IMG/VR virus record: IMGVR_UViG_3300042924_004713
Span: 1 to 64,000 of that record
Length of the DNA stretch: 64,000 bases
Origin: a virus
Direction: 5' to 3' (one strand)
Positions 11,290 to 59,066 of the stretch are shown piece after piece. The position numbers and the translations under genes were made by a program. Position 1 is the first letter of the stretch. Every line of letters starts with the position of its first letter. The notes beneath the pieces were generated by a model. It was not told the DNA's origin. It searched no databases and worked only from the letters and a program-made list of their open reading frames with translations.

Positions 11290-11348
11290 CCAAGTGTGAT
11301 AGCTGCCCCTGTTTGCTAAATATTGGCAAACTACAACAGGGAGCTACA

Positions 11349-11963
11349 ATGGAGCTAAAACTCAACCAACTCAAAGAGATGGTGCACGGCATACCCTATG
11401 CTGAACAATGGCACCACGCACTGGAGCAACTACTTCCAGACTATCAAATCAATACCCCCAAGCGTATCGCAGCGTTTATTGCTCAATGTGCGCATGAGTC
11501 AGGTGGGTTTAGATTTGTCAGCGAAAATCTCAACTACAAAGCGGAAAGTCTCATGAAGGTTTTCCCCAAGTATTTTCACACCAAGGAATTGGCCAATGCC
11601 TATGCTAAAAATCCTGAAAAAATCGCCAACAGAGTCTATGCCAATCGCATGGGCAACGGAGACGAAGCATCAGGTGATGGCTTTAAGTATCGAGGCCGCG
11701 GATTAATTCAACTCACTGGCAAAGAAAATTATTCTTGGTTCGCAGCCAGTCTGCAGATTTCCCCCGAAGAAGCCACAGAGTACATGAGCACTTTTGAAGG
11801 TGCTGCTCAGAGCGCCTGTTGGTTCTGGGAGACCAACAACCTAAACAAAGAAGCCGACGCAGGTGATATCAAGCTCATGACACGCAAAATCAATGGTGGT
11901 TTCATTGGACTTGAGGATCGTATCAAACACTATAATCATGCACTGCATGTGCTAGGAGTATAA
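11349..11963 (+). CDS. Glycoside hydrolase family 19 endolysin
   Basis: AQCAHESGGF, ENLNY, YRGRGLIQLTG, TRKINGG; SD GGGAG. Confidence 0.92.
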   Translation: MELKLNQLKEMVHGIPYAEQWHHALEQLLPDYQINTPKRIAAFIAQCAHESGGFRFVSENLNYKAESLMKVFPKYFHTKELANAYAKNPEKIANRVYANRMGNGDEASGDGFKYRGRGLIQLTGKENYSWFAASLQISPEEATEYMSTFEGAAQSACWFWETNNLNKEADAGDIKLMTRKINGGFIGLEDRIKHYNHALHVLGV

Positions 11964-37494: not shown

Positions 37495-40161
37495 ATGAGT
37501 TATGTTGACGCCCTTTTTGATCGTGACCACGATCGCATACATGTAGTAGAACGCAGAAACGGCGAACGCCGTTATCAAGAATATCCTGCCAACTATGTTT
37601 TCTATTATGATGATCCTCGCGGTAAGTTTCAGAGCATATATGGAACTCCCGTGTCTAGATTCTCTACACGGAGTAACAAGGAGTTTCGTAAGGAACTGCG
37701 TATTCAAAGTGGAAAACAATGTTATGAGTCGGACATCAATCCGGTATTTCGTTGTCTAGAGGACAACTACAAAGGCCAGGATGCACCCAAACTCAACGCA
37801 GCATTTTTTGACATTGAAGTAGACTTTGATCCTGAACGTGGTTACAGCAGACCCGACGATCCTTTCAACGCAATCACAGCCATCTCGGTATATCTTGGTT
37901 GGTTGGATCAACTAGTGACCATGGCAGTGCCACCGCGCAGTGTGAGCATGGAGACTGCACAGGATCTTGTGAAAGATTTCCCCAACACTTTTTTGTTTGG
38001 CACAGAAGCAGAGATGTTGGCTATGTTTTTGGATCTCATAGACGATGCTGACGTGCTGTCGGGTTGGAACTCAGAAGGCTATGATATTCCCTACACAGTT
38101 CAACGTATCACTAGAGTTCTCAGCAAAGATGACACACGCAAATTCTGTTTATGGGGACAGTTTCCAAAACAACGAACGTTTGAACGCTTTGGTGCAGAAG
38201 CCCTGACATTTGACCTTGTGGGTCGAGTGCATATGGACTATATGCAACTTTATAGGAAATACACTTATGAAGAACGTCACAGCTACAGCCTTGATTCAAT
38301 CCTTGAATACGAAGAACTTGAGGGCAAGACCAAATACGAAGGTACGTTGGATCAACTCTACAATCAAGACTTCCGCAAGTTCATCGAGTATAACAGACAA
38401 GACGTTAATGGACTGGCCTCGCTCGACAAAAAGCTCAAGTTCTTGGATCTAGCCAACACACTAGCACATGAAAACACAGTGCTGCTGCCTACCACAATGG
38501 GTGCAGTGGCTGTGACAGAACAGGCTATTATTAACGAAGCCCACGAACGTGGTATGGTTGTGCCCAACAGACAGGAGAGACACAGTGATGACGACACACA
38601 AGCGGCAGGTGCCTATGTTGCTTATCCCAAAAAAGGGCTCCACGAATGGATTGGCTCCATTGACATCAACAGCCTCTATCCCTCAGCGATCCGCGCTCTT
38701 AACATGGCACCGGAGACCATTGTTGGCCAACTCCGGCCGCACATGACCAATCGGTATATACAAGAAAGGCAACAGCAAGGCATGAGCTTTGCTGCTTCAT
38801 GGGAAGGATTGTTTGGCACACTAGAATATACCGCTGTTATGGAACAACAGCGGGGCACTGAAATCATTATTGATTGGCAATCAGGCGAAGAGTCAGTTCA
38901 CAGTGCAGCAGAAGTATGGCGCATGATTTTTGACAGTCGTCAACCTTGGATGCTCAGTGCCAATGGTACTATTTTTACTTACGAACGCGAAGGCGTGGTT
39001 CCTGGCTTGCTGAAACGTTGGTATGCTGAACGTAAGGACATGCAGAAAAAAGCCAGAGAATACGAAGGAGTAGATGATGCACAATTTGAATACTGGGACA
39101 AACGCCAACTCGTCAAGAAGATTAATCTTAATAGTTTGTATGGCGCTATTCTTAACCCCGGTTGTAGGTTTTTTGATAAGCGCATTGGTCAGTCTACTAC
39201 TCTTACTGGACGGGCGATTGCGAAGCACATGGACGCACACGTCAACGAATGCCTCACAGGACGATACGACCACGTCGGAGAAACCATAATCTATGGCGAC
39301 ACAGACTCATGTTACTTTTCTGCTTGGCCTGTGCTCAAGAAAGAAGTAGAGTCTGGGCGAATGGAATGGAACAGCGATATCTGTATTCAACTCTACAATG
39401 GCATTGCAGATCAAGTCAACGAAAGCTTCCCTGCTTTCATGGAAACAGCTTTTCATGTGCCAAGAGAAATGGGTTCAGTGATACGCGGCGGGCGTGAACT
39501 TGTGGCCACCAAGGGTCTGTTTATCACCAAGAAACGCTATGCTGTGATGTACATAGACAAAGAAAACAAACGTGTTGACATCAACGGCAAGCCGGGCAAG
39601 GTCAAGGCCATGGGGCTTGATCTCAAACGTTCAGACACTCCCAAGGTAATTCAAGACTTCTTGAGTGAAGTTCTCAATGATGTGCTACAAGGCGCCAATC
39701 GTGAACAGATAGTGGAAAAGATACGTCAGTTTAAATTTGATTTTAAAGAGCGCCCAGGTTGGGAAAAAGGTTCACCCAAGCGTGTGAACAACTTGACCAA
39801 GTTTGTGAAAGCCGAAGAACGCGAAGGTAGAGCCAATATGCCAGGACATGTACGTGCTGCCATGAACTGGAATGTTATGCGTAAAATGATGGGCGATAAC
39901 TATTCAATGCAGATCATGGATGGCGCCAAGGTAATTGTTTGTAAACTCAAAAACAATCCATTGAACTGGACATCAATTGCCTATCCCACAGATGAGCTGC
40001 ACTTGCCTCAATGGTTTAGAGAACTGCCATTCGATGACAATGGCATGGAATCAACTGTGATTGATGGCAAAGTAGATAATCTACTGGGTGTGTTGGACTG
40101 GGATCTGGAAGGCTCAACCAATACTACCAACACTTTTCAAAGTCTATTTGATTTTTCATGA
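37495..40161 (+). CDS. Family B DNA polymerase (T4 gp43-like)
   Basis: FDIE, GWNSEGYD, YNRQD exonuclease motifs; DINSLYPS, KINLNSLYG, YGDTDS, KKRY. Confidence 0.97.
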   Translation: MSYVDALFDRDHDRIHVVERRNGERRYQEYPANYVFYYDDPRGKFQSIYGTPVSRFSTRSNKEFRKELRIQSGKQCYESDINPVFRCLEDNYKGQDAPKLNAAFFDIEVDFDPERGYSRPDDPFNAITAISVYLGWLDQLVTMAVPPRSVSMETAQDLVKDFPNTFLFGTEAEMLAMFLDLIDDADVLSGWNSEGYDIPYTVQRITRVLSKDDTRKFCLWGQFPKQRTFERFGAEALTFDLVGRVHMDYMQLYRKYTYEERHSYSLDSILEYEELEGKTKYEGTLDQLYNQDFRKFIEYNRQDVNGLASLDKKLKFLDLANTLAHENTVLLPTTMGAVAVTEQAIINEAHERGMVVPNRQERHSDDDTQAAGAYVAYPKKGLHEWIGSIDINSLYPSAIRALNMAPETIVGQLRPHMTNRYIQERQQQGMSFAASWEGLFGTLEYTAVMEQQRGTEIIIDWQSGEESVHSAAEVWRMIFDSRQPWMLSANGTIFTYEREGVVPGLLKRWYAERKDMQKKAREYEGVDDAQFEYWDKRQLVKKINLNSLYGAILNPGCRFFDKRIGQSTTLTGRAIAKHMDAHVNECLTGRYDHVGETIIYGDTDSCYFSAWPVLKKEVESGRMEWNSDICIQLYNGIADQVNESFPAFMETAFHVPREMGSVIRGGRELVATKGLFITKKRYAVMYIDKENKRVDINGKPGKVKAMGLDLKRSDTPKVIQDFLSEVLNDVLQGANREQIVEKIRQFKFDFKERPGWEKGSPKRVNNLTKFVKAEEREGRANMPGHVRAAMNWNVMRKMMGDNYSMQIMDGAKVIVCKLKNNPLNWTSIAYPTDELHLPQWFRELPFDDNGMESTVIDGKVDNLLGVLDWDLEGSTNTTNTFQSLFDFS

Positions 40162-43751: not shown

Positions 43752-43780
43752 TTGACATAATTTGTGTTGTGTTATAAAAT
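43752..43780 (+). promoter_or_regulatory. Sigma70-like promoter
   Basis: TTGACA-17 nt-TAAAAT. Confidence 0.75.
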
Positions 43781-43810: not shown

Positions 43811-44020
43811 ATGTACCAAGATCAAATACGCCAACTAGAAGTTCAACATCGAGACCTAGACAACAAGATTGACACACTGGAAAAAACCGGCATCTATGAA
43901 GACCTGCGTTTGCAAGAGCTCAAAAAACGCAGACTCATGGTACGAGATCAACTCAGTGAACTAAGACGCAGACAGTTTGAACACGATCACGAACGAGTTA
44001 ATTACGACGATTATGAATAG
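43811..44020 (+). CDS. DUF465/YdcH-like small coiled-coil protein
   Basis: LEVQHRDLDNKI...LQELKKRRLMVRDQL. Confidence 0.7.
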   Translation: MYQDQIRQLEVQHRDLDNKIDTLEKTGIYEDLRLQELKKRRLMVRDQLSELRRRQFEHDHERVNYDDYE

Positions 44021-44543
44021 ATTAGGACATCACAACGCCAACTTCTTTATTGGTAATGAAGTTGAGCATACACCCGCACACGGCAAGCGAACTCTGTTTG
44101 TGGTTGGGTATCAACCCGTGGAAGATATACAGGCAGTGTTAGATGAACACAACAGTTGGACAGACCCTGCTCTACATATCAAGCATATCTTTTTTGGTGC
44201 CAATGACAGCTATCATCCATTGACCAACCCAGATATCGTGGGCTGGGAAAACATCATACACAGTTTTTTGATGCGAGGATACTGGTGTAGTCTTGACATT
44301 CCTTTCAAGTACGTGGCTGAATTCAACGAAAGTGGGCTGTGCGAACACAATCGCTTTATTCCTATAATCAAGGTTCCTGTGCCTTATATCAGATTGTGGA
44401 ACTATAATACCTGTGTGAAAATTGATGACAAAGATTTCGCTGATACCAATCCAGGTGTCTGGGTACACAGACTGCATGACCTCATGCACACAGATTGCTT
44501 TACTGATTGGAGCATGTACAACGACGACAAGGTGACAACATGA
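44013..44543 (+). CDS. Hypothetical phage protein
   Basis: ORF between dpdA-like and dpdL-like genes. Confidence 0.7.
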   Translation: MNRLGHHNANFFIGNEVEHTPAHGKRTLFVVGYQPVEDIQAVLDEHNSWTDPALHIKHIFFGANDSYHPLTNPDIVGWENIIHSFLMRGYWCSLDIPFKYVAEFNESGLCEHNRFIPIIKVPVPYIRLWNYNTCVKIDDKDFADTNPGVWVHRLHDLMHTDCFTDWSMYNDDKVTT

Positions 44544-44851: not shown

Positions 44852-45306
44852 TGCAACAACCTCCAAAAATCCTTTATCGCGTAACCAGTCTCGCTGACAG
44901 ATCGGTTAGAGTTCATCATGTTTTACAGCGTCTGAGTAGGGACCAGGTTGTGCGCATTGACCAGTGGTATATGTGGGGGCAAGGCTTTGTTGCCGAGCAC
45001 ACAGATCTCGCCAGATATACCAAGTTTATTGAATGTGATCCCGAGCTAGGTTACCAGGTAGAAAACGAAGTTGCATCAAACTTTCAGTGGGAAGGACCAG
45101 ACTGGAATGAAAAAGCTCAACATCGCATGCAAAAAGATCTTGCCAAAGGTGGAGTACAAAGAATAGTGGAACAACAAAGCAGTTGGAAGCTGCTTGAAAC
45201 AAAAATATGGATCAATGCACCGTTTAGAGTTGACGAAGTTGACTTTTTAAACAATAATATAGTACTCAAGATTGATGTACCTTACAAAGGACAGATTAGA
45301 GCATGA
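44851..45306 (+). CDS. Hypothetical protein
   Basis: TAATG-coupled ORF. Confidence 0.6.
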   Translation: MQQPPKILYRVTSLADRSVRVHHVLQRLSRDQVVRIDQWYMWGQGFVAEHTDLARYTKFIECDPELGYQVENEVASNFQWEGPDWNEKAQHRMQKDLAKGGVQRIVEQQSSWKLLETKIWINAPFRVDEVDFLNNNIVLKIDVPYKGQIRA

Positions 45307-45788
45307 ACTCACAAGAATACATTGACGTTTTAGAATCACACCTACAGGCCTCATTGGACACTAGGAATCGTATTGTGCAACAGGCCAAAAGACAGATTTG
45401 GGTTACGTTCCGCAAAGAAGGCATTCACAAGTATCCAGCGGCTGCTACTGATCCTAATCTAGCCACAGGAGATGCATATGACGTTTCGTTTTTGGCCAAT
45501 GCACATCGCCATATATTTCATTTTAGGGTGTCAATCGACGTATGGCACAATGACCGTGATATCGAGTTCATCCAATTCAAACGATGGCTGGAATCACTGT
45601 ATTCAGGGCAAGAAAATTGTTTGCGATTGGACTACAAAAGCTGCGAAATGATCGCAGATGACTTATACAATCAGATTGCTCAACGTTACCCAGATCGAGA
45701 TATCTGTATTGAAGTAAGTGAAGATGGTGAAAACGGTTGCTGTGTTTACTACAACACACATCAACCTTCTATGAAAGTAAAAATCTAA
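45303..45788 (+). CDS. T-fold QueD paralogue, DpdL-like
   Basis: EGIH, LANAHRHIF (LxxxHRHxF), IEF, SCEMIA, VSEDGENG. Confidence 0.65.
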   Translation: MNSQEYIDVLESHLQASLDTRNRIVQQAKRQIWVTFRKEGIHKYPAAATDPNLATGDAYDVSFLANAHRHIFHFRVSIDVWHNDRDIEFIQFKRWLESLYSGQENCLRLDYKSCEMIADDLYNQIAQRYPDRDICIEVSEDGENGCCVYYNTHQPSMKVKI

Positions 45789-45797
45789 AGGACTACT

Positions 45798-45989
45798 ATG
45801 CCTAATCTAAATAAACTAAACAAGGTTAATGAAACAGTATCAATCTATCGCTATGACAACGGTTGGATGGTTGAAGTTGGTGGCCGTGATGACGACGATG
45901 AGTGGGTAACTGCTAAAGTGATTTGCAACACAGAAGTAGAAGTACTTGATTTAATTAAACAATACAATACACTACCATTGGTGAACTAA
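45798..45989 (+). CDS. Small hypothetical protein
   Basis: ORF with SD. Confidence 0.6.
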   Translation: MPNLNKLNKVNETVSIYRYDNGWMVEVGGRDDDDEWVTAKVICNTEVEVLDLIKQYNTLPLVN

Positions 45990-45999
45990 GGAGATTGAA

Positions 46000-46218
46000 A
46001 TGGCCAAGCCTGTAATCAAGCCAAACCCTCGTGTAACTCAAGTGTTTGATGACCTCGAACGTTATCTTGAATTCTGTCAAGAGTTTGGTTACCGTTACAA
46101 TGAAGCAGAACTTTACAACTGGAAGAGCTATGCTTATCAACAGTTTATGAAGTTCTCTCAAGGCAAACCAGTAAAAGACATGTGGTTTCAAGACCAGCGT
46201 AGGCCTGGGAGACCATAA
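46000..46218 (+). CDS. Small hypothetical protein
   Basis: SD AAGGAG. Confidence 0.65.
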   Translation: MAKPVIKPNPRVTQVFDDLERYLEFCQEFGYRYNEAELYNWKSYAYQQFMKFSQGKPVKDMWFQDQRRPGRP

Positions 46219-46220
46219 TA

Positions 46221-47423
46221 ATGAAAAAACTTTACTACATGGGGCTTGAAAGTTATCAAGCTCGTTACACTCTACAACTAACTGAATGGAATCGACGTGT
46301 GTTTGAACGTCGTGGGTTAGATGTGGTATATGTTCCAGGCACTGCTATAGACAACTCACAGGCCATATCTGTGGGACAGGTTCTAGACGCACATGGTAGA
46401 AGTTACTTTGGCATGAGCCAAATGATGAATCTCGTGCAAATGCATAAGAACGGAGAGATTAGGCATGATGATGTTATCTACTTTGAGGACATGTTTCAAC
46501 CCGGTATCGAGAGCCTACCTTACATATTTGATCAGGTCCCTCGTGATCAGCGTCCCCGTGTTTTTGTTAGGTGTCTTGCTCAGTCCATTGATCCTGATGA
46601 CTTTGTTCATGTATGGGGTCTTGAAAAGTGGATGGCGCATTACGAACGCATGGTCAATGAGTTCGCTACCGGAATTCTCGCCACAAATGAGGAGATGGTT
46701 GCTCATATGCGTATTGCTGGATGGCGTGCTCCTATCTATAATATTTCTGGCCTAGCATTTGGCAAACAAGAAGTGCTGGAACGCATTGGTGGTTCTGACA
46801 ACATCACTCCATTCAACCAACGTCCCATGAGAGTGGGCTTTGCTGCTCGATTTGATCAAGAAAAGCAGCCAGGCTTTTACATGGACTTGATTGATATGTG
46901 GAACAACCAAGCTGATTTCCCAGTGGAGTTTTGCTTGTTCTCTGGTGGGCCACTGCGTTCGAACAATCCAGAGTATATCGCTCGAGCTCGTGATCTTGAA
47001 GCACAAGGTCTCCTGACCATTCATGAGAATCTAACCAAGAATGATTACTATGATCTGCTCAATAACACGCGAGTTCTTTTCAATTGCGCACTACAAGATT
47101 GGGTGTCAAACACTGTTAGTGAAGCTGATACCCTGGGTTGCAATGTATTATACCCTGCTTATCGTAGCTTCCCAGAAACTTTTGCAAATGATCCCAACCG
47201 TCTTTATGTTCCTTGGAGCATTGATGATGCATTCCACAAGCTGGAGAATCTACTGAAAGCACCACATCACAACATGGGCTTGATTTCAGATTGGAACGAT
47301 GGCACAGTGGATCGTGTGGTCGATATCATACTAGGACATGGTGAACAATGGAATCGCAGCGGCAATCGCTACAGAGATCATTTGCCCGGTGACAAATATC
47401 ATGTTAGAAAAATAGGTGAGTAA
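46221..47423 (+). CDS. GT-B-fold glycosyltransferase
   Basis: FAARFDQEKQP, ALQDWVSNTVSEA, LYPAYRSFPE. Confidence 0.8.
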   Translation: MKKLYYMGLESYQARYTLQLTEWNRRVFERRGLDVVYVPGTAIDNSQAISVGQVLDAHGRSYFGMSQMMNLVQMHKNGEIRHDDVIYFEDMFQPGIESLPYIFDQVPRDQRPRVFVRCLAQSIDPDDFVHVWGLEKWMAHYERMVNEFATGILATNEEMVAHMRIAGWRAPIYNISGLAFGKQEVLERIGGSDNITPFNQRPMRVGFAARFDQEKQPGFYMDLIDMWNNQADFPVEFCLFSGGPLRSNNPEYIARARDLEAQGLLTIHENLTKNDYYDLLNNTRVLFNCALQDWVSNTVSEADTLGCNVLYPAYRSFPETFANDPNRLYVPWSIDDAFHKLENLLKAPHHNMGLISDWNDGTVDRVVDIILGHGEQWNRSGNRYRDHLPGDKYHVRKIGE

Positions 47424-47462
47424 CTTGCTGGCTAAATACTGGCTCTACTCAATAACTCCCCC

Positions 47463-48383
47463 ATGAAAATATTCATTACCGGCAGTAACGGCTTTATCGG
47501 CCAACATCTTTTGCCTTTGTTACAACAACGTCATACTGTGGTTGAGCTTGTTAGCGACCTTAGAGATCATGCCAAGGTTGTAGCTGAACTGCAAGCAGCT
47601 AACCCAGATATAGTAGTACATCTGGCTGCTCGCACCGAAGTTGAAAAAAGTTTTTATGAGCAAGTTACTTTTAGTGACATCAACTACGTGGGCAGTGTTA
47701 ATCTCATCGACGCAGCCAGCAAGTTAAGTAATCTCAAAAACTTTGTGTTTGCTAGTACCATGGAAGTCTATGGCTGGCAACCTATCAGCGATGAAGTCCG
47801 TGATCATGGCAAACCACTTGTGTCATTGGCTTTTGACGAAAACACTGTGCCCAATCCCAATGCTCCTTATGCAGTGGCAAAGCTAGCAGTGGAAAAATAC
47901 TTGGAATATGCTCATCGTGCTCTAGGTCTACCTTTCACAGCATTACGACAAACCAACAGCTATGGTCGTGGTGACAATGACTTCTTTGTAACAGAACAAA
48001 TTGTCACACAGATGTTGCAAGGTCTTGATGTAGTGAAGTTAGGCTATGCCGAACCCTATAGAAACTTTATCTGGATTGAAGATTTGTTGCAAGCCTGGAT
48101 GCAAGTGATTGAAAATCCTGAGCAATGCAATCAAGGCAAGATCTACACCGTGGGTCCTGACAATCCAATCAAGATAAGAGATTATGCAGAAAAGATTGCA
48201 GGCATGATTGGCTGGCAAGGCGAAATAAAATGGAATACCAAGCCGCATCGTCCCGGAGAAATCTACTGGTTAAATTCGGGTACCACAGCTATTACTCGTG
48301 ATCTTGGATGGCGCCCTGTGATTGATATGGACACAGGTTTAGAAAAGACTATAAAAATATGGCGCCAGAAATTCAACAAATAA
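47463..48383 (+). CDS. NAD-dependent nucleotide-sugar epimerase/dehydratase
   Basis: ITGSNGFIG, HLAA, ASTMEVYG, PYAVAK (YxxxK). Confidence 0.92.
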   Translation: MKIFITGSNGFIGQHLLPLLQQRHTVVELVSDLRDHAKVVAELQAANPDIVVHLAARTEVEKSFYEQVTFSDINYVGSVNLIDAASKLSNLKNFVFASTMEVYGWQPISDEVRDHGKPLVSLAFDENTVPNPNAPYAVAKLAVEKYLEYAHRALGLPFTALRQTNSYGRGDNDFFVTEQIVTQMLQGLDVVKLGYAEPYRNFIWIEDLLQAWMQVIENPEQCNQGKIYTVGPDNPIKIRDYAEKIAGMIGWQGEIKWNTKPHRPGEIYWLNSGTTAITRDLGWRPVIDMDTGLEKTIKIWRQKFNK

Positions 48384-48913
48384 AACAAGGACACATTGAC
48401 CTATCACGGTTTGGTGATTGGCACGAGAACTGTGATTTTGTTACACACCCAGATCCATGGAGTGGATTTAGTCCTGTGTATGCAGTTGATCGAGAACGTT
48501 ATTTTAATATCACTGAGATAGCCATTGCTCGCAACATACCCGAGAGTCTTGAACACTATCTCTCGCAGCAATTTGCTTTTTTGTCCGATAAAGTTTATGC
48601 AGCACATCTAATTCCAGCAGGCAAGATATTACCATGGCATCAAGATGCATATCGAATCTACTGTGAAAAACGAGCAATCACAGATTTATCATTGATCACT
48701 AGAGTAATCATCTTTGTACAGGACTGGAAGGTTGGACACGGTCTACAAGTGGGTGATAGATCCATTGGCACCTGGCAGCGAGGAGATTGGGTGTCATGGC
48801 AAGGCGATACTCCGCATCTAGTGTATAACCTAGGTCAAGATCCAAGATATACCCTGCAGATTACTGGCACAAAAATGTCAAACAATCTTGACCACGACCT
48901 AAATATTCTGTAA
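48359..48913 (+). CDS. Fe(II)/2OG oxygenase-like protein
   Basis: PWHQD...PHLVYN...RYTLQITG; same motif layout as 7799-8473. Confidence 0.65.
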   Translation: MAPEIQQIKQGHIDLSRFGDWHENCDFVTHPDPWSGFSPVYAVDRERYFNITEIAIARNIPESLEHYLSQQFAFLSDKVYAAHLIPAGKILPWHQDAYRIYCEKRAITDLSLITRVIIFVQDWKVGHGLQVGDRSIGTWQRGDWVSWQGDTPHLVYNLGQDPRYTLQITGTKMSNNLDHDLNIL

Positions 48914-48922
48914 ACTAGCAAC

Positions 48923-48947
48923 AGTCATCCTCGACTCAAACTCGGAG
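48923..48947 (+). promoter_or_regulatory. Candidate SD-occluding mini-pseudoknot in the folE leader
   Basis: AGTC/GACT stem, loop ATCCTC whose TCC complements GGA of the SD. Confidence 0.35.
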
Positions 48948-48954
48948 AAAAACA

Positions 48955-49779
48955 TTGTCAAACACTTATACCCCTGATCCACTACTCAACACACCTGTAG
49001 ACACAGAGTTTCAGCCACAAACCTATCAAGATCGATATGTGCCTTTGCCCACAAAGGTCTATGTCAAGGCCGGCGAAGTTGGACGACGCCAAGAATATGT
49101 GTCAGATCTAATCAAAGCTCGGATGAAGACTGATAACAAACGTTTTTGGGCCGGTGACAACATCAGTGACTATATCACAGCAGAACAAAAGAGTCAGCTA
49201 ATTGATGAAGCCACCGAAGCCTTTGAGCTTGTGTTGGATCGATTGTTGATTGATCGTGAAAACGATCCTAACTCACAAGGCACAGCCAGGCGCTTGGCCA
49301 AGATGTACTTCAATGAAATAATGGCAGGTAGATACGAACCAAGTCCCAACGCCACAGCTTTTCCAAACGACACAGAAGATCGTTATGAGGGCATGCTGGT
49401 TGTACGCAGTGAGCTTCGTAGTATGTGTAGTCACCATCACCAACCAGTCAGCGGAGTTGCATATATTGGTATCATTGCTGCGGAAAAACTCATTGGTTTG
49501 TCTAAGTACACTCGTATCGCCCAATGGTGCGCTCGTCGTGGCACACTACAGGAAGAGCTGTGCAATGATATCGCCAGAGAAATCATGAAAGCCACAGGCA
49601 GCAAAAACGTAGGTGTATACATTCAAGCCACACACGGTTGCTGTGAAAATCGCGGCATCATGGCACATTCAAGTCTAACACAAACCACTGTATTGACCGG
49701 AGCTTTCAAAGACGATCCCAGCGTCAAGAAAGAGTTCATGGACAATATCAAACTTCAACAAGAATTCGCTCCGAGGTAA
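48955..49779 (+). CDS. folE: GTP cyclohydrolase I
   Basis: TARRLAK, SMCSHH, IGLSKYTR, LQEEL, HGCCENRG; TTG start after GGAG. Confidence 0.95.
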   Translation: MSNTYTPDPLLNTPVDTEFQPQTYQDRYVPLPTKVYVKAGEVGRRQEYVSDLIKARMKTDNKRFWAGDNISDYITAEQKSQLIDEATEAFELVLDRLLIDRENDPNSQGTARRLAKMYFNEIMAGRYEPSPNATAFPNDTEDRYEGMLVVRSELRSMCSHHHQPVSGVAYIGIIAAEKLIGLSKYTRIAQWCARRGTLQEELCNDIAREIMKATGSKNVGVYIQATHGCCENRGIMAHSSLTQTTVLTGAFKDDPSVKKEFMDNIKLQQEFAPR

Positions 49780-50573: not shown

Positions 50574-50952
50574 TCTTGATCGTGCTATCGCAGACAAAAG
50601 AGCTCCTTGGACTGAGATAGAACGCACCGAATCTTTGTACACAGTGTTCAGAGATGCATTTGCAGTGACTCCTGGACATTTGTTGTTTGTTCCCGCACAA
50701 GAAACCTGGGAATGTGTTGCGGCCTGCTATCAAGCTGCTTACGAAACTGGAGCAGCCGGTGTGACGCAGGGTCAATGGGACGCTTTTAACATCGGACAAA
50801 ATGTTGGTGAGGCTGCTGGACAAACTGTGATGTATCCACATGTTCACATGATACCACGTAGACAAGGTGATTGTGCTGATCCCACGGGTGGAGTACGTGG
50901 AGTGATTTCCAGTCAACAAAACTACAAACGACCTGGATATATCAAACCATGA
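50563..50952 (+). CDS. HIT-family nucleotide hydrolase
   Basis: VTPGHLL, NVGEAAGQTV, YPHVHMIPR. Confidence 0.9.
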   Translation: MISDLDRAIADKRAPWTEIERTESLYTVFRDAFAVTPGHLLFVPAQETWECVAACYQAAYETGAAGVTQGQWDAFNIGQNVGEAAGQTVMYPHVHMIPRRQGDCADPTGGVRGVISSQQNYKRPGYIKP

Positions 50953-51851
50953 AGAAACTTTTGACTATGTTGTTGCTGTTGACTATGTCAGTTTCAGTCA
51001 ACGCTAAAAAATCTACGTCGCATCACCCAGCAGTTTGGGTCTACAACATTACCAAACAAGAGATAGTTACCGCACGGTTTCACAATGAGACCATGCCCAT
51101 TGCCAGTATAACCAAACTCATGACCGCCATGGTATCCTTGGATTATGATCGCGATCTTGAGAGAAAAATCACAATGTTGCCGGGTGGACGACTGCCCGCA
51201 GGTGAACACAGTCGTCGTGATGTAATGACAGCAATGTTGGTGCGCAGTGATAACATAGCAGCCGAAAGCATAGCCAGGGACTATCCTGGAGGTCGTAAAG
51301 ACTTTATCAAGGCCATGAATCGCAAGGCACAGGAGATTGCCATGGTTGGTGCCAGATTCATGGATCCCACAGGACTGAGTTCTAGCAACGAAGCCACTGC
51401 TGGCAGCGTGGGCAACATGGTGCAGATTGCATCACTGTATCCTTTCATTGTGGAAACCAGTGTGAAAAAGCATGTGCTATTTGAGGTCAATAGAAAACGA
51501 AAGATTAGAACAATTTCTATTGACAATACTAACAAGCCCTTGCTTATGGAGTTTGACCAAATACGTGTGAGCAAAACTGGTTTTACAAATTCAGCTGGTT
51601 GGTGTGTGGGCATGTTAGTAGAAAGCAAAGGTCAGGAGTTTGTGATTGTGATTCTTCACAGTGAAAGCAAACAAAAAAGATATGAGCTAGCGAAATCTAC
51701 CATTTACAATAATTTGGTTGATCATGAAGTTGATAATGTGGTCAATGACTCAGATCCCCAACCAGAACCTGCGCCAGAACCAGAAACCATTGACAAAACA
51801 ATTTATAGATGGTATAATAAGTTTTGGCTGTCAATAACCGGCAAATCCTAA
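50949..51851 (+). CDS. Peptidase S11 D-Ala-D-Ala carboxy/endopeptidase (PBP7-like), secreted
   Basis: Signal peptide; ASITK (SxxK), SDN, KTG. Confidence 0.92.
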   Translation: MKKLLTMLLLLTMSVSVNAKKSTSHHPAVWVYNITKQEIVTARFHNETMPIASITKLMTAMVSLDYDRDLERKITMLPGGRLPAGEHSRRDVMTAMLVRSDNIAAESIARDYPGGRKDFIKAMNRKAQEIAMVGARFMDPTGLSSSNEATAGSVGNMVQIASLYPFIVETSVKKHVLFEVNRKRKIRTISIDNTNKPLLMEFDQIRVSKTGFTNSAGWCVGMLVESKGQEFVIVILHSESKQKRYELAKSTIYNNLVDHEVDNVVNDSDPQPEPAPEPETIDKTIYRWYNKFWLSITGKS

Positions 51852-52869: not shown

Positions 52870-53388
52870 GTGCTTTACCTAAATGAAACACAACCCCCAA
52901 GAACTTACAAATATGTAAGCACCAAAGAGTATCATGATGCTTTTCCCTGTGCGTATCGCCAATGGCGTGCGGATAGTCATTGTAACTTGATTCATGGTTA
53001 CAGTTTTAGCATGAAGTTCTACTTTGGCACAGATCTACTTGATGTGCGCAACTGGGCAGCTGACTATGGCGGCCTTAAAGAGCTTAAAAAGATTCTAGAA
53101 GATCAATTTGATCATACCTTGCTAGTAGCCATGGATGACCCAGAACTAGAAACATTCAAATTACTGCAAGAAAAGAAGTTAGCCAAACTTACTATTCTTC
53201 CTAGACTAGGCTGCGAAGGCCTAGCCGATATGCTGTACAAGTATGTGAATGGCGTGTATATTCCTGATATGTGGGGGCCTGGAGAGTCTGAAAGACTTTG
53301 GTGCTTCCGTGTGGAAGTACGCGAAACACAAAGCAACATGGCGTTCCGTGAGGGTCACCGTGAATGGGATGAAGATCTGTTTGCGTAA
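52870..53388 (+). CDS. queD: 6-carboxy-5,6,7,8-tetrahydropterin synthase
   Basis: HCNLIHGY, DYGGLKELK, FDHTLL, CEGLA, VEVRET. Confidence 0.88.
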   Translation: MLYLNETQPPRTYKYVSTKEYHDAFPCAYRQWRADSHCNLIHGYSFSMKFYFGTDLLDVRNWAADYGGLKELKKILEDQFDHTLLVAMDDPELETFKLLQEKKLAKLTILPRLGCEGLADMLYKYVNGVYIPDMWGPGESERLWCFRVEVRETQSNMAFREGHREWDEDLFA

Positions 53389-54263: not shown

Positions 54264-54579
54264 TTTCCCTGACTTTGATCGAGCCTACAAGTCGGTGCTG
54301 TTACCAGACAATCCTGACAGGTTTGACCATATAGCGGCACAGGCTAATTTTAATATCTATCACAACGATCTTTGGCGCGGCACAGCGCGACGATTCGCTG
54401 AGTACATCGTGGAAGAGTGTGCGCAGTGCTGTGGAAGCCAGGCAGACAAAAAGGCCATACGAAAAAGATTTGGTTTGCCTATTGAAGATCCAGTGAAATA
54501 TCCGGGACCGGATCCCTTGGGCAGTGTACAATCTCAATATGCCCGAGAGTATAATCTTCCAAAAACAGATGAAACCTAG
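54247..54579 (+). CDS. Hypothetical phage protein
   Basis: ORF; FAEYIVEEC motif. Confidence 0.55.
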   Translation: MTRPSDFPDFDRAYKSVLLPDNPDRFDHIAAQANFNIYHNDLWRGTARRFAEYIVEECAQCCGSQADKKAIRKRFGLPIEDPVKYPGPDPLGSVQSQYAREYNLPKTDET

Positions 54580-55684
54580 CCATTTTTATTTTGACAATCG
54601 CATTCTAGAAAAAGAACAACTGCTGTTCAATCATGCTCGTTATGTGGGACATGAACTGTTGGTTCCTGGCCTGGGTAACTATGCTGTGATCCCACAGGAA
54701 GGCGATGGTAGAATGTTGATCAACAACAGTGATGGCGTGCAACTCATGAGCAATGTGTGCAGACATCGACAAGCAACTATCTTGCAGGGATCAGGACATC
54801 ATGCACAAATTGTTTGCCCACTGCATGGTTGGACCTATGACAATCACGGCAAGCTCATTGGTGCGCCTTTTTTTGATCCATGCCCAGATCGACATTTACA
54901 AAAGTTTACCACTCAATCCTGGCATGGATTGATATTTGAACAAGGTCATTTTGATCTGGTAAAAGCACTAGATCAAATCACTCACAAGTCTTATTTTAAC
55001 TTTAACAACTATGCGTTTCACAGCCGCCAGCAGCATTGGTGCAACTATAATTGGAAGACCTTTGTTGAAGTATACTTAGAAGACTATCATGTGGATGCAT
55101 TTCATCCAGGACTAGGTAACTTTGTAGATTGCAAACAGCTTACTTGGCAATTCAATGATCACTACAGTGTGCAGAGTGTGGGGATCAAACAGCGTTTACA
55201 GACTCCGGGCACACCTGTGTATCGTACCTGGCACAAAGCAGTAACTGACAGATGCCGTCCAAATCTACCAGACTATGGAGCCATTTGGTTGTTGATATAT
55301 CCCAACGTCATGGTAGAGTGGTATCCAGAGGTCTTGGTAATCAGCAGTGTATGGCCAGAGTCACCACAACGAACTTTGAACATAGTGGACTTTTACTATC
55401 CCGAAGAAATCGCACACTTTGAAGCAGATTTCGTAGAAGCACATCAAGCTGCCTACATGGAGACCTGCTACGAAGATGATGAAATAGCTGAACGCATGGA
55501 TCGCGGTCGTAGGCATCTTGACAGTCGAGGAGCCAATGACACAGGTCCTGTACAAGATCCTATGGAAACAGGACTAAAGAAATTTCATGATTACTACGAC
55601 CAATGGATTTTTACAGAACAACATAGAGCGTATGTCGCGCCGCGCATTGAAGATCCAGGCAGCGAAGGCGGAACATTGGATTGA
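54569..55684 (+). CDS. Rieske non-heme iron oxygenase alpha subunit
   Basis: NVCRH...CPLHGWTY Rieske motif; NWK..E...EDYHVDAFH and ED mononuclear iron site. Confidence 0.93.
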   Translation: MKPSHFYFDNRILEKEQLLFNHARYVGHELLVPGLGNYAVIPQEGDGRMLINNSDGVQLMSNVCRHRQATILQGSGHHAQIVCPLHGWTYDNHGKLIGAPFFDPCPDRHLQKFTTQSWHGLIFEQGHFDLVKALDQITHKSYFNFNNYAFHSRQQHWCNYNWKTFVEVYLEDYHVDAFHPGLGNFVDCKQLTWQFNDHYSVQSVGIKQRLQTPGTPVYRTWHKAVTDRCRPNLPDYGAIWLLIYPNVMVEWYPEVLVISSVWPESPQRTLNIVDFYYPEEIAHFEADFVEAHQAAYMETCYEDDEIAERMDRGRRHLDSRGANDTGPVQDPMETGLKKFHDYYDQWIFTEQHRAYVAPRIEDPGSEGGTLD

Positions 55685-55996: not shown

Positions 55997-56833
55997 ATGG
56001 AAAATTCCAAAAATCACAAATTTGATATAGCAGTGTTGCTGCCTACTAGAGGTCGTACCACTGCACTGATGCGCAGCATCATGAGTCTAGTTAATAGAAC
56101 AAGAAATCTTGATCGTATTCAATTCTTTATTGGGCTTGATGAAGATGACACAGTGGGTATAAACTATTGGCAGACCGAAGTAGAACCATTGCTGCGTCAA
56201 CGCTCTGCTAACTTTACTGCCATGGTATTTGAGCCTTTGGGATATATCAGACTCAACGAATATGTAACCGAACTAGCCAAACATTCGGATAGCAAGTGGT
56301 TGATGTTCTGGAATGACGATGCAATCATGGAGAGTCAGAACTGGGACGAGGAAATAATGAAATATCAAGGACAGTTCAAGGTGCTAGCAGTACACACGCA
56401 TCGTGAACATCCTTATAGCATTTTCCCCATAGTGCCAAGAGATTGGCTGGATCTTTTTGGTTACATGAGTCCACATCAACTCAGCGATGCTTGGATCAGT
56501 CAGATAGGATATTTGGTTGATATCTGGGAACGCATACCAGTTTGGGTCACACATGATCGTTTTGACCTCACCGGCAACAACAACGATGACACGTACAATA
56601 ATCGTCCTCAATTAGAAAATCAACCTGACAATCCAGAAGATTTTCACAGCAACAAATGGCACACTCGCAGAGTCAATGATGCTGAACGTTTGAGTCAACT
56701 GTTGGCTTCTAGAGGCATTGATCAAACTTGGTGGGAAAATTGCAAATCAGGCAAACAAGATCCCTGGGTCAAACTCAGTGCTAACGACATAAACAAACAA
56801 ATGACACAAACGAGAACAGTTAATGGCCAATAA
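55997..56833 (+). CDS. GT2-like glycosyltransferase
   Basis: IAVLLPTRGR, LDEDD, MFWNDD. Confidence 0.75.
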   Translation: MENSKNHKFDIAVLLPTRGRTTALMRSIMSLVNRTRNLDRIQFFIGLDEDDTVGINYWQTEVEPLLRQRSANFTAMVFEPLGYIRLNEYVTELAKHSDSKWLMFWNDDAIMESQNWDEEIMKYQGQFKVLAVHTHREHPYSIFPIVPRDWLDLFGYMSPHQLSDAWISQIGYLVDIWERIPVWVTHDRFDLTGNNNDDTYNNRPQLENQPDNPEDFHSNKWHTRRVNDAERLSQLLASRGIDQTWWENCKSGKQDPWVKLSANDINKQMTQTRTVNGQ

Positions 56834-57605
56834 CAGTGAACTGGTAGAAAAAATTCAAGCCTATTGGGACAGGCAACCCTGTAACATTAGGCATAGTCAA
56901 AAACCTCTAGGCAGCGTAGAATACTTTGAAGAAGTCACAGCTCGTCGCTATAGAGTTGAGCCTCATATCTTGGACTTTGCGCAGTTTCATCGCTGGCAGG
57001 GCAAGAGAGTATTAGAAATTGGCTGTGGTATTGGCACTGATGCCGAGCAGTTTGTGCGTCATGGTGCAGAATATGTGGGCATTGACATATCAGATGCCAG
57101 TCTACAAATCTGTCGTGAAAGATTCAAGGTCATGGATCTTCATGGAGAATTCCACAATGTAAACCTATTGGATCCAGATCACATGGATCTTGGTCAGTTT
57201 GATCTTGTGTACAGTTATGGAGTCATACATCATAGTCCAGACATTGATCATCACATCACTGAGATACACAAGCTTTTGCGACCAAACGGTGAGTTTAGAT
57301 TCATGGTCTATGCCAAGAATTCATGGAAATATGCCATGATTCAAAAAGGACTTGATCAGTTTGAAGCACAAGCAGAATGTCCTTATGCTGAGGCCTTTAC
57401 TAGAGATGAAATTGAGGACATGTTAGATGGAATTTTTGACATCGAACGTATTAGACAAGCGCACTGTTTCATGTATAATGTAGCTGCATATCGCGAAGGT
57501 AGATATGAACTTGAACCCTGGTTTGCAGCAATGAGTGACACTATGCGTGATGCTGTGAGAGAATATCTGGGTTGGCATCTTTTGGTCAAGGCACGTAAAA
57601 AATGA
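56823..57605 (+). CDS. Class I SAM-dependent methyltransferase
   Basis: VLEIGCGIG, GIDIS, FDLVYSYGVIHH, LRPNG. Confidence 0.92.
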   Translation: MANNSELVEKIQAYWDRQPCNIRHSQKPLGSVEYFEEVTARRYRVEPHILDFAQFHRWQGKRVLEIGCGIGTDAEQFVRHGAEYVGIDISDASLQICRERFKVMDLHGEFHNVNLLDPDHMDLGQFDLVYSYGVIHHSPDIDHHITEIHKLLRPNGEFRFMVYAKNSWKYAMIQKGLDQFEAQAECPYAEAFTRDEIEDMLDGIFDIERIRQAHCFMYNVAAYREGRYELEPWFAAMSDTMRDAVREYLGWHLLVKARKK

Positions 57606-58168
57606 AAAAAATTCATATTTCTGACAAAGAAGTACGAGGCATGGTATTGGATATCCTGCGTCAAATGACTCAAGATCGTTGGCTTCCGGACTATGTGGTT
57701 GGACTCACTCGTGGTGGACTTGTACCTGCTAACATGATAAGCCAGTACTTGAAAGTGCCCATGGAGACTCTCAAGGTCAGCCTGCGTGACCAAAATTCTG
57801 AACCCGAAAGTAATCTGTGGATGGCCGAGGATGCATTTGGTTACATACCTCAAGAACAGCGAGGTGCGTCAGGAACAGTGACTGATCCTGCACTGCGCAA
57901 AAAAATCTTGATTGTGGACGATATCAACGACAGCGGCGCTACATTCAACTGGATTACCAAAGATTGGCCATCTGGCTGTATGCCAAATGAAACACATGTT
58001 TGGCGAGCTATTTGGAATCATTCGGTGAGATTTGCTGTGTTGGTAGACAACGCCAGCAGCAAGTCTGAGGTTTCTATGAACTATAGTGCTCGTACAATCA
58101 ACAAGTTCGAAGATCCTAGTTGGATTGTTTTTCCCTGGGAGCAATGGTGGCATCCAACAAAAATTTGA
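57602..58168 (+). CDS. Type I purine phosphoribosyltransferase (Gpt-like)
   Basis: VGLTRGGLVPA, ILIVDDINDSGAT PRPP loop, WIVFPWE. Confidence 0.9.
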   Translation: MKKIHISDKEVRGMVLDILRQMTQDRWLPDYVVGLTRGGLVPANMISQYLKVPMETLKVSLRDQNSEPESNLWMAEDAFGYIPQEQRGASGTVTDPALRKKILIVDDINDSGATFNWITKDWPSGCMPNETHVWRAIWNHSVRFAVLVDNASSKSEVSMNYSARTINKFEDPSWIVFPWEQWWHPTKI

Positions 58169-58199: not shown

Positions 58200-59066
58200 A
58201 TGGAAAAGATAACCTATACTGAAATTTTCTACAGCCTACAAGGCGAAGGAATGTATGCTGGCGTGCCCAGCATTTTCTTTCGTACCTATGGTTGTAACTT
58301 TAGATGCCGTAAATTTGGTAGATCACAAGATGAACAGATTGACGGACATAATCCTGAAGTGGTTGAAATCATCAAAAACATTGCACAGTACAATAAATTT
58401 GAAGACCTACCTCTGGTGACCACAGGATGCGATACCTATGCGTCAATCTATCCCGAGTTCAAGCGTTTCAATCAACAAGAAACAGTGTCAACCATTGCTG
58501 ATCAAATCCATGCACTATTGCCTGGTAACGTATGGCAAGATTCACATTTGATCATCACAGGTGGTGAGCCCTTGCTGGCCTATCAACAACTGTATCCGGA
58601 ACTCTTAGAACTGTGTAGAGCCAAGGGACTGCGACATCTTACATTTGAAACCAACGGTACTCAAAAGATCTATCCTGAAGTAGAAGAATATCTGTTTCAA
58701 GAGTTCACAAGACATGGACGCGACTTTGAGAACTTGACATTCAGTGTGAGTCCTAAACTGCCGTGTTCTGGTGAACCGTTTGAACGAGCCATACAACCTG
58801 AAGTTGTGCATCAATACGCATTGTATGGTCGAGTATACTTGAAATTTGTAGTGGCTACTCAGCAAGACGTAGAAGACGCAGAACGTGCTGTGGCCGAGTA
58901 TCGCAAACACAACGTGAACTGTCCAGTGTATCTCATGCCTGTGGGTGGTGTACCACAGGTGTATAACTTGAATACTCAACAGGTTGCACAGCTAGCACTG
59001 GAGAGAGGATGGCGTTACAGTCCAAGGCTACAAGTTGATATTTGGCGCAACGCATGGGGAACGTAA
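58200..59066 (+). CDS. queE: 7-carboxy-7-deazaguanine synthase (radical SAM)
   Basis: EIFYSLQGEG, RTYGCNFRC...GCDT, ITGGEPL, ETNGT, SPK, SPRLQ. Confidence 0.93.
   Translation: MEKITYTEIFYSLQGEGMYAGVPSIFFRTYGCNFRCRKFGRSQDEQIDGHNPEVVEIIKNIAQYNKFEDLPLVTTGCDTYASIYPEFKRFNQQETVSTIADQIHALLPGNVWQDSHLIITGGEPLLAYQQLYPELLELCRAKGLRHLTFETNGTQKIYPEVEEYLFQEFTRHGRDFENLTFSVSPKLPCSGEPFERAIQPEVVHQYALYGRVYLKFVVATQQDVEDAERAVAEYRKHNVNCPVYLMPVGGVPQVYNLNTQQVAQLALERGWRYSPRLQVDIWRNAWGT

Follow-up and report, generated by a model that had tools for sequence, protein, structure and literature searches.

Gene content of the locus

The subject of this analysis is a glycosyltransferase (GT) gene of a jumbo phage and the 7-deazaguanine gene cluster in which it lies. 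The sequence analysed (the window, 64,000 nucleotides) is the first 64 kb of the 166-kb IMG/VR virus record IMGVR_UViG_3300042924_004713, for which CheckV gives a completeness of 48%. Two complete close relatives with direct terminal repeats measure 346,856 and 352,754 bp, and the virus is therefore placed in a clade of jumbo phages. The named genes between positions 42206 and 49779 sit on the plus strand downstream of the gene for a family-B DNA polymerase, PolB (Table 1). The initial annotation of this stretch had listed a dpdL-like gene, two small open reading frames (ORFs), a GT-B glycosyltransferase, a nucleoside diphosphate (NDP)-sugar epimerase, an oxygenase-like gene and folE in that order, and all of these ORFs were confirmed on the plus strand. 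Downstream of FolE follow MazG-like, HIT and peptidase S11 genes, and then QueD. Searches of Pfam, PHROGs, NCBIfam and PDB sequences were uninformative for the GT, the DpdA-like protein, the 184-aa oxygenase-like protein and the conserved proteins g188 and s72.

Table 1. Genes of the window and the evidence for their assignment
Feature	Position	Strand	Evidence and remarks
PolB, family-B DNA polymerase	37495-40161		
DpdA-like DNA/guanine transglycosylase, long type, 512 aa	42206-43744	+	DSGGFQ motif
g188, conserved protein without assigned function	43977-44543	+	kept in 72/80 relatives
DpdL homolog, QueD-like T-fold, proposed 7-carboxy-7-deazaguanine decarboxylase	45303-45788	+	LxxxHRHxF; phrog_17812, 9e-34
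s63, small variable ORF, 63 aa	45798-45989	+	ORF call; homologs in 19/80 relatives
s72, small conserved ORF, 72 aa, basic, pI 9.1	46000-46218	+	78/80 relatives
Predicted GT-B glycosyltransferase, retaining GT4 type, 'RYT' subfamily	46221-47423	+	AlphaFold2 fold, motifs, synteny
Extended-SDR NDP-sugar epimerase/dehydratase/reductase	47463-48383	+	PF01370, 1.4e-41; PF16363, 1.8e-38
Small 2OG/Fe(II)-oxygenase-like DSBH protein, 184 aa, accessory	48359-48913	+	HxD...H; AlphaFold2/Foldseek
FolE (GTP cyclohydrolase I), N-terminal extension of ~95 aa	48955-49779	+	PF01227, 4.7e-40, residues 97-265; phrog_2197
D-alanyl-D-alanine carboxypeptidase	50949-51851		Peptidase_S11, 1e-30; amid nucleotide-metabolism block
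QueD (CPH4 synthase / PTPS)	52870-53388	+	PF01242, 1.5e-14
Rieske ring-hydroxylating oxygenase alpha subunit, accessory	54524-55684	+	PF00848, 1.3e-36; PF00355
Probable second glycosyltransferase, GT2/GT-A-like, 278 aa	55997-56833	+	Atlas cluster; sequence motifs
SAM-dependent methyltransferase	56823-57605	+	PF08242, PF13649, PF08241, 1e-17 to 1e-19
Purine-type phosphoribosyltransferase (PRTase)	57602-58168	+	PF00156, 3.7e-14; weakly xanthine-PRTase-like
QueE-like radical-SAM enzyme (CDG synthase)	58200-59066	+	weak Radical_SAM and Fer4_12 matches

The glycosyltransferase belongs to a large GT4-like family

The AlphaFold2 (AF2) model of the GT (pLDDT 93.1, pTM 0.90) aligns with sucrose-phosphate synthase, MshA, BshA, PglA and PimA at VIA Z scores of 25-27 (root-mean-square deviation 3.2-3.9 Å over 317-339 residues), and Foldseek, with an E-value of 1e-12, has BshA, MshA, sucrose-phosphate synthase and glycogen synthase among the matches listed. 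In Pfam the window protein reaches 18.4 bits for PF13524, below the cut-off of 25; two other members of its family pass related thresholds, P0257 for PF00534 (29.4, cut-off 26.4) and P0180 for PF13692 (34.8, cut-off 27). All aligned family members keep R210-x4-K215, and D293-x7-E301 is invariant or nearly so. Judged from alignment position, the former would correspond to the R-x4-K that binds the donor diphosphate in GT4 enzymes, and the latter apparently stands in place of the GT4 motif ExxxxxxxE with D as the first acid, at the site of nucleotide-sugar binding. The N-terminus carries the motif LE(P/S)xExRYT, of which E10, R15, Y16 and T17 are invariant or nearly so. By its modelled fold, the protein belongs to the GT-B glycosyltransferases and, among these, to the retaining GT4 type. 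The family comprises more than 8000 clusters at 90% identity (E <= 0.001) and about 800 at 50% identity in an exhaustive search; fused forms were searched for and none was found, and no additional Pfam domain is present in its longer members.

A QueC-less pathway with DpdL and a long DpdA-like protein

FolE, QueD and QueE co-occur with DpdL in the window phage, the QueE-like protein being 29-50% identical to annotated phage QueE proteins, and searches for QueC (PF06508) were negative for the 166-kb record as well as for both complete relatives (347 and 353 kb). With QueC absent, the pathway would therefore end at 7-carboxy-7-deazaguanine (CDG) or 7-deazaguanine (DG). The motif L-ANA-HRH-I-F of the window DpdL fits LxxxHRHxF, which replaces the CxxxHGH of QueD and was defined as the DpdL signature by Cui et al. 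2023 (PMC10516641). By tblastn the protein is 68% identical to its counterpart in Phosso, 49% to that of ACP17 (3e-34) and 33% to that of phiST (1e-8), and we consider it, from these sequence comparisons, a true DpdL homolog. DpdL is rare: among the 50,697 GenBank phage records searched, tblastn found it in 29, including phiST and ACP17. Two of these encode it as the C-terminal part of a longer ORF, namely Vibrio phage Bakedbeans gp176 (L090:7245-8396, 383 aa; L-numbers denote the loci compared) and an ORF of Chryseobacterium phage MA9V-3 (L092:7524-8405, 293 aa), with N-terminal extensions of no recognised similarity.

DpdL has been proposed to decarboxylate CDG, a step predicted to take place on the free base, although the activity is unproven (PMC10516641). 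In phiST, 2'-deoxy-7-deazaguanine (dDG) replaces 100% of dG (Cui et al. 2023, NAR, PMC10516641). Expression of the ACP17 DpdL and DpdA in Escherichia coli gave no dDG, and further enzymes were suggested to be needed (PMC10516641). The gene between those for DpdA and DpdL in ACP17 encodes a member of the GT family described here, a position that may account for the failed reconstitution with DpdL and DpdA alone.

The DpdA-like protein of the window has no PF01702 match and no PDB sequence match. It is 35% identical (E 2e-87) to a 540-aa protein encoded directly upstream of the GT gene in PA5oct, and hhalign relates it to the DpdA-like proteins of ACP17, BUDD, BCSR5 and BUCT-ZZ01 with a probability of 87.5% (E 3.6e-6); the ACP17-type protein was used as DpdA by Cui et al. 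(PMC10516641). The sequence DSGGFQ is invariant among the aligned DpdA-like proteins and DSGGxQ is common to both long types. All GT-bearing phages encode such long DpdA-like proteins (416-540 aa), which fall into two remotely related types.

The glycosyltransferase is linked to DpdL across unrelated phages

GenBank phages were searched for the GT by tblastn and with a hidden Markov model (HMM) built from alignment A1. Carriers were cyanophage BUCT-ZZ01 (65% identical), the PA5oct group, BUDD/X1, BCSR5, ACP17 and Phosso, and in all six the GT lies inside a 7-deazaguanine cluster, each time in a different arrangement: QueD-FolE-x-DpdA-GT-DpdL-QueE in ACP17 (GT E-value 6e-12; HMM 6e-42), PolB...DpdA(540 aa)-GT-DpdL...QueE in PA5oct, FolE...GT-DpdA-DpdL-QueE in BUDD/X1, DpdL...GT-DpdA...QueE in BCSR5, DpdL-GT-x-FolE...QueE in Phosso, where the DpdA-like gene is ~170 kb away, and QueE-PRT-x-QueD-FolE-GT1(447 aa)-DpdA-DpdL-GT in BUCT-ZZ01. 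The last module thus holds two GT-B enzymes, the second being a generic GT1-family protein (447 aa, PF13692/PF00534, L002:7011-8354) encoded between FolE and the DpdA-like gene.

Within the jumbo clade, the loci of 80 IMG/VR relatives were compared with the window, and all 80 keep the order DpdA-g188-(x)-DpdL-s72-GT-...-FolE. Distant family members (L103-L106, 31-52% identical) likewise have DpdL, a DpdA-like gene, QueE and FolE as neighbors. Contigs binned into metagenome-assembled genomes (MAGs) also carry the GT in this context, and in GTDB genomes it occurs only on phage-looking MAG contigs. The clade contigs among them were binned into Haliscomenobacter sp. and Chitinophagales MAGs (L094 and L096, on NZ_JBBAKG01 contigs, and L095), which may reflect MAG contamination or hint at a host among the Saprospiraceae/Chitinophagales. 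Single-protein scans of viral contigs with the distant members P0215, P0250 and P0190 gave no match.

Every phage record with an RYT-type GT is among the 29 that carry DpdL, and since DpdL is so rare, the association is not due to chance. The initial annotation had named a lack of linkage to dpd genes in relatives as the outcome that would speak against its proposal; we find the GT linked to them in at least seven isolate lineages and in every metagenomic relative examined. Its adjacency to DpdL is more consistent than that to DpdA, and it lies in DNA-replication modules next to PolB. Median identity within the clade is 79% for the GT, a level of conservation on a par with that of PolB (75%), FolE (80%) and QueD (84%). 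Taking sequence conservation and synteny together, the GT is best explained as an active, NDP-sugar-dependent enzyme that forms a dedicated part of a QueC-less DpdL-type pathway.

The sole family-like proteins outside a dpd context come from the Xanthomonas phage PhiXhv-12 group (also Ep026, Ep032, PhiXhv-15 and PhiXhv-16). These score 82 bits with the HMM, against 132-492 for the family, and are without the LE(P/S)xExRYT motif; their locus (L107:6747-9981) is a trio of genes for GlmS, an LmbE-type deacetylase and the GT, with no deazaguanine genes. We treated this GT as an outgroup with a different acceptor. The layout of the locus is reminiscent of mycothiol and bacillithiol synthesis, in which a GT is likewise paired with a deacetylase.

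DpdL also occurs in phages that have no member of the GT family, namely phiST, MA9V-3, RHph_I1_18, Ahp1, D479, Bakedbeans and Roos, so that the GT characterises a separate variant of this pathway. Instead of it, phiST and MA9V-3 carry a short DpdA3 together with a kinase-like gene. D479, Ahp1, Bakedbeans and RHph_I1_18 share a separate family of ~285-aa proteins that are 41-53% identical (L091:8692-9549, L007:7471-8343, L090:15123-16049 and L006:9071-10339) and annotated as DUF3310 in RHph_I1_18. Its gene follows DpdL by 40-80 bp in D479 and Ahp1, by ~1.7 kb in RHph_I1_18 and by ~6.7 kb in Bakedbeans, and it could encode another insertion enzyme.

One of the carriers provides information on its DNA. 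PA5oct virion DNA resists cleavage at G-containing restriction sites and is targeted by modified-G-sensing nucleases, with the modified base not identified by the authors (PMC12191111). In at least this member the module thus acts on DNA, and glycosylated deazaguanine would be a concrete candidate for the modified G. The same observations bear on a scenario in which the DpdA-like protein and the GT would act on tRNA, deazaguanine being inserted and then glycosylated much as queuosine in animal tRNAs acquires mannose or galactose. The long DpdA-like proteins have diverged strongly from the tRNA-guanine transglycosylases to which they are related, and the animal mannosyl-queuosine transferase is itself a GT4-family enzyme. 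However, Pfam reported no similarity to an N-terminal domain of the DUF3524/GTDC1 type, the phiST DpdL accompanies complete replacement of dG in DNA, and it is DNA that is restriction-resistant and sensed as carrying modified G in PA5oct, which has the same DpdA-GT-DpdL module (PMC12191111). We regard action on tRNA as very unlikely.

A hypervariable cassette of sugar-tailoring genes

The gene that follows the GT encodes an SDR (short-chain dehydrogenase/reductase) whose best NCBIfam matches are dTDP-glucose 4,6-dehydratase, LegB and GalE, all below the equivalog cut-off. Across the 80 loci, the SDRs at this position show a median identity of only ~23% to that of the window; its type (c6) occurs in only five relatives and most carry another SDR, c1. 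The epimerase was a component of the mechanism envisaged in the initial annotation, a role that is hard to maintain for a gene replaced by other SDRs in most relatives. When the interval between the GT and FolE was clustered for 72 loci, 51 ORF clusters in ~40 different architectures were found. Another SDR with a DegT/DnrJ/EryC1-like fragment is the commonest content, while other cassettes encode an SDR of the GDP-mannose-4,6-dehydratase type, a TylC3-type sugar C-methyltransferase (PF08421 with PF08484), radical-SAM enzymes, some of them B12-binding, and a number of unknown proteins. An expanded interval of at least 5 kb (L018:9204-14839) encodes a 4,6-dehydratase, a TylC3-type sugar C-methyltransferase and SDRs, and another (L065:3268-6511) contains genes for an SDR and for a radical-SAM enzyme of ~628 aa with B12 binding. 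From its gene content, the interval looks like a hotspot of sugar-tailoring gene turnover, that is, a hypervariable deoxy- or amino-sugar cassette. In most of the other isolate lineages with the GT, the module lacks a sugar cassette, and the enzyme would there depend on a nucleotide sugar common in the host.

The second gene of the window cassette shares an overlap with the SDR gene and runs in the same direction as the GT. Its 184-aa product has no Pfam match; its AF2 model (pLDDT 86.7) is a double-stranded beta-helix (DSBH) for which Foldseek gave prolyl-4-hydroxylase, AspH, PHD2 and AusE (E 3e-5 to 4e-4, TM 0.56-0.60), and all 11 sequences compared keep H94-x-D96...H153 and R163, the latter presumably serving to bind 2-oxoglutarate (2OG). 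The presence of this protein, and of a Rieske oxygenase in the cluster, would suit a scheme in which a 2OG/Fe oxygenase hydroxylates the base (deazaguanine, or thymine as in base J) and the GT glycosylates the new hydroxyl. The distribution of these genes argues otherwise: the oxygenase-like gene is found in 13 of the 80 relatives (11 protein clusters overall) and the Rieske gene in only 6, and neither occurs in the modules of ACP17, PA5oct, BUDD, BCSR5, Phosso or BUCT-ZZ01. An obligate oxygenase partner of the GT was rejected on the basis of this distribution. Where the oxygenase-like gene (c2) does occur, it usually travels with one SDR type as the minority variant pair c6-c2, and on this pattern the protein seems to fit a sugar-tailoring enzyme better than a base hydroxylase. 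Tet/JBP (PF12851) had no match in the genomes G000, G001 and G002, a search in which the control genomes were silent too. We consider hydroxylation of the base followed by glycosylation highly improbable. Of the proposal in the initial annotation, the linkage of the GT to dpd genes is thus supported, whereas an oxygenase paired with the GT as the mechanism is not, the oxygenase-like gene being absent from the other GT lineages.

Cassettes of this kind raise the question of whether the GT and its neighbors serve an unrelated glycan, such as a virion protein, host lipopolysaccharide (LPS) or a surface polysaccharide, and lie near the dpd genes because both belong to shared early or auxiliary blocks. 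Phage GT4 genes and cassettes with SDR, aminotransferase and C-methyltransferase genes are typical of glycan loci, a GT2-like gene is nearby, the X1 paper treats tagE/tarM-like genes as surface-modification genes, and the PhiXhv-12 outgroup GT sits with GlmS and an LmbE-type deacetylase in the absence of dpd genes. Against this stand the adjacency to DpdL/DpdA in at least seven unrelated lineages with differing gene orders and in all distant members examined, which is not a matter of chance, the lack of a cassette in most GT-bearing isolate lineages, and the missing RYT motif and far lower scores of the PhiXhv-12 protein. An unrelated glycan therefore appears quite improbable as the target.

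Proposed glycosylation of 7-deazaguanine

We suggest the following scenario. FolE, QueD and QueE would make CDG, which DpdL, following the published proposal, would convert to 7-deazaguanine by decarboxylation; the long-type DpdA would then swap guanine in the phage DNA for 7-deazaguanine. The GT would add a sugar to the deazaguanine-derived base, most likely after its insertion into DNA or, alternatively, to the free base before insertion. The genes between GT and folE would supply and remodel the nucleotide sugar, by one SDR and a 2OG-oxygenase-like protein in the window and by other SDRs, an aminotransferase-like gene, a sugar C-methyltransferase, a 4,6-dehydratase and radical-SAM enzymes in relatives. 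As the cassette genes differ, closely related phages would therefore carry different sugars, a pattern to be expected from an arms race against enzymes that recognise modified DNA.

In our judgment, the chances are about evenly balanced that the deazaguanine-derived base made by the DpdL pathway receives from the GT a sugar that varies between relatives, a proposal to which gene content and synteny point and in which the acceptor and the DNA level are conjectural. That the glycosylation takes place at the level of DNA is somewhat doubtful. It is a tentative prediction that the DNA of this jumbo clade, which is widespread in lakes and the sea, and of PA5oct, ACP17, BUDD/X1, BCSR5, Phosso and BUCT-ZZ01 carries glycosylated 7-deazaguanine with a sugar swapped by cassette. 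N2, O6 or the electron-rich pyrrole carbons are candidate acceptor atoms. Glycosylation of 5-hydroxymethylcytosine (hmC) or 5-hydroxymethyluracil (hmU) was rejected, as a ThyA-family hydroxymethylase (PF00303) is absent from the 166-kb record and even from the two complete relatives (347 and 353 kb), with positive controls.

Several points weigh against the glycosylation of deazaguanine. T4 alpha-GT and beta-GT are not among the 50 structural matches listed by VIA or among those listed by Foldseek, although a family missing from such a list may still be similar, and the parallel drawn in the initial annotation with T-even DNA glucosyltransferases is not supported for an enzyme of the retaining GT4 type. 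The listed matches act on acceptors other than nucleic acids, namely small molecules and glycans. The GT family is acidic (pI ~5.5, net charge -3 to -13), although overall charge does not decide on a DNA acceptor because the DpdA-like protein is acidic too. 7-deazaguanine offers the enzyme neither a hydroxyl group nor another obvious O-nucleophile, the GT is not accompanied by a conserved hydroxylase, and we know of no precedent for N2-, O6- or C-glycosylation of 7-deazaguanine in DNA. The pathway leans on a decarboxylase activity of DpdL that is itself only proposed, and the 100% dDG of phiST, which has no GT, implies that the DpdL step itself can proceed without one. Finally, the link between cassette and GT rests on position, and the GT stays ~80% identical as the cassette changes.

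Part of this evidence fits a different role, in which the GT glycosylates a free small molecule of the same GTP-derived pathway, a 7-deazapurine or a pterin, and the product never enters DNA, comparable to huimycin, dapiramicin or the product of the cyanobacterial UDP-glucose:tetrahydrobiopterin glucosyltransferase (BGluT). Such a metabolite might serve as an inhibitor or for storage, or be a by-product that has been detoxified. The best structural matches include GT4 enzymes with small acceptors (BshA, MshA, LmbT and SenB), with BGluT at Z 23-24, and the acidic character of the GT is in line with such acceptors. FolE and an enzyme of the PTPS fold could make pterins, the host of BUCT-ZZ01 is the Synechococcus strain in which BGluT was described, and the GT adjoins DpdL, predicted to act on the free base, more consistently than DpdA. 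A precedent is provided by HuiG of the huimycin pathway, which glycosylates a free 7-deazapurine base with UDP-GlcNAc; the huimycin cluster family is reported to contain PF13439 glycosyltransferases, which we take to be of GT4 type (bioRxiv 10.64898/2026.04.15.718813). On the other hand, BGluT is structurally no closer than generic GT4 enzymes, it is difficult to see why a metabolite that stays inside the cell should need a hypervariable sugar cassette, and the GT sits in replication modules beside PolB. It co-occurs with a DpdA-like gene in the fully sequenced isolates examined, mostly adjacent to it (Phosso being the case at ~170 kb), and the DNA of PA5oct carries modified G (PMC12191111). 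A free metabolite as the acceptor is in our view unlikely.

Other genes of the cluster

The genes from DpdL to FolE are co-directional and tightly packed. The sole sizeable gap, between the DpdA-like gene and g188, contains a near-consensus sigma-70-like promoter candidate at 43752-43780 (TTGACA, 17 nt, TAAAAT; 11 of 12 positions match), and no terminator-like site was found on the plus strand between 43.7 and 50.4 kb. Together these features raise the possibility that g188 through the 184-aa gene form a single transcription unit, as far as can be judged from sequence.

The protein g188 has no Pfam, PHROG, NCBIfam or Atlas assignment; it shows the motifs F-x-G-x-E-V-E-H-T, GANxSF, KIDD and NPGVW, and its true start is probably M13, at 44013. 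The relatives that keep it have it between DpdA and DpdL, and homologs lie beside the module in ACP17 (L005:4249-4761), where the ORF seems longer than its annotation, and in L103 (7423-7962). Between g188 and DpdL are two small variable ORFs. Two further small ORFs, s63 and s72, lie between DpdL and the GT and have no family match (Pfam; PHROG searches for s63). The stop codon of s72 is 3 nt upstream of the GT start, and the relatives that have s72 keep it directly upstream of the GT, while homologs of s63 are usually at other positions. The Peptidase_S11 gene was found at its position in only one of the 80 relatives.

Downstream of the Rieske gene, the 278-aa protein has no Pfam match. Its nearest Atlas cluster is 'glycosyltransferase family 2' (score 0.99), with PF00535 in 62% of the cluster members, and its sequence contains an N-terminal VLLPTRGR and a WNDD, which resembles a DxD motif. 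We take this as a lead, not proof, that it is a glycosyltransferase of the GT2/GT-A type; the gene is present in at least 44 of the 80 relatives, and the enzyme might add a second sugar. Homologs of the PRTase are encoded in BUCT-ZZ01, PA5oct, L095 and L098, with positions L002:5094-5555 and L004 around 11333-11767 noted for two of the loci. Its recurrence in QueC-less modules parallels the tubercidin pathway and hints at a nucleotide-level, pre-replicative branch beside DpdA.

Relation to known systems

The phiST-type dDG pathway (PMC10516641) shares with the window FolE, QueD, QueE, the DpdL motif, a DpdA-family enzyme, the lack of QueC and the replication module. It differs in its short DpdA3, its kinase-like gene, the absence of a GT and its plain dDG product, whereas the window, ACP17, PA5oct, BUDD, BCSR5, Phosso and BUCT-ZZ01 combine a long DpdA (416-540 aa) with a GT4-like GT. 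A GT of this family is not mentioned in the published work on phiST and DpdL (PMC10516641). More broadly, the literature searched contains no mention of a GT as part of a dpd/DpdL module, and some phage records annotate the gene simply as glycosyltransferase.

Tailoring of 7-deazapurines with sugars has a parallel in the huimycin and dapiramicin clusters, in which a GT and a SAM methyltransferase (HuiC) are clustered with genes of the FolE/QueD/QueE type and a sugar is attached to the pyrrolopyrimidine base, with deoxysugar tailoring in addition for dapiramicin. Unlike the window, these are secondary-metabolite clusters of actinomycetes that include QueC, giving a preQ0 core, and no enzyme for insertion into nucleic acids; the comparison with HuiG was by description only. 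The tubercidin pathway resembles the window in being QueC-less and in proceeding via CDG with a purine-type PRTase and a decarboxylation (bioRxiv 10.64898/2026.04.15.718813), but relies on a UbiD-type decarboxylase, has no T-fold DpdL, GT or DpdA, and yields a free nucleoside antibiotic.

Among systems that glycosylate DNA, the T4 alpha-GT and beta-GT are, like the window GT, phage GT-B enzymes that use a nucleotide sugar. T4 glucosyltransferases act post-replicatively on hmC and thereby evade restriction. The window GT has no detectable sequence relationship to them, is of the retaining GT4 type and acidic, and, unlike T4, its phage has no ThyA-family dCMP/dUMP hydroxymethylase and hence no hmC or hmU as acceptor. 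With base J, the glucosyl-hydroxymethyluracil of kinetoplastids, the window shares the idea that an oxygenase and then a glycosyltransferase modify a base in DNA, but here the oxygenase is accessory and cannot be shown to be of the JBP type, the glycosyltransferase has a GT-B fold, and nothing points to hmU.

The sugar-modified bases known from phages are pyrimidines, that is, glucosyl- and arabinosyl-hmC and derivatives of hmU, and to our knowledge the eight described 7-deazaguanine modifications of DNA carry only small groups. Glycosylation of phage DNA by GT-B enzymes and modification of DNA with 7-deazaguanines are each known. No description of a sugar-bearing 7-deazaguanine in DNA was found in the literature searched, which suggests that the combination is new. 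If true, it would be the purine counterpart of glucosyl-hmC and a new class of purine hypermodification, with a bearing on restriction, on defence by glycosylases and END nucleases, on how such DNA is sequenced and on the labelling of DNA by enzymes. The GT family is very abundant, including in the ~350-kb jumbo phages of lakes, and is present in cultured phages, which makes the hypothesis testable.

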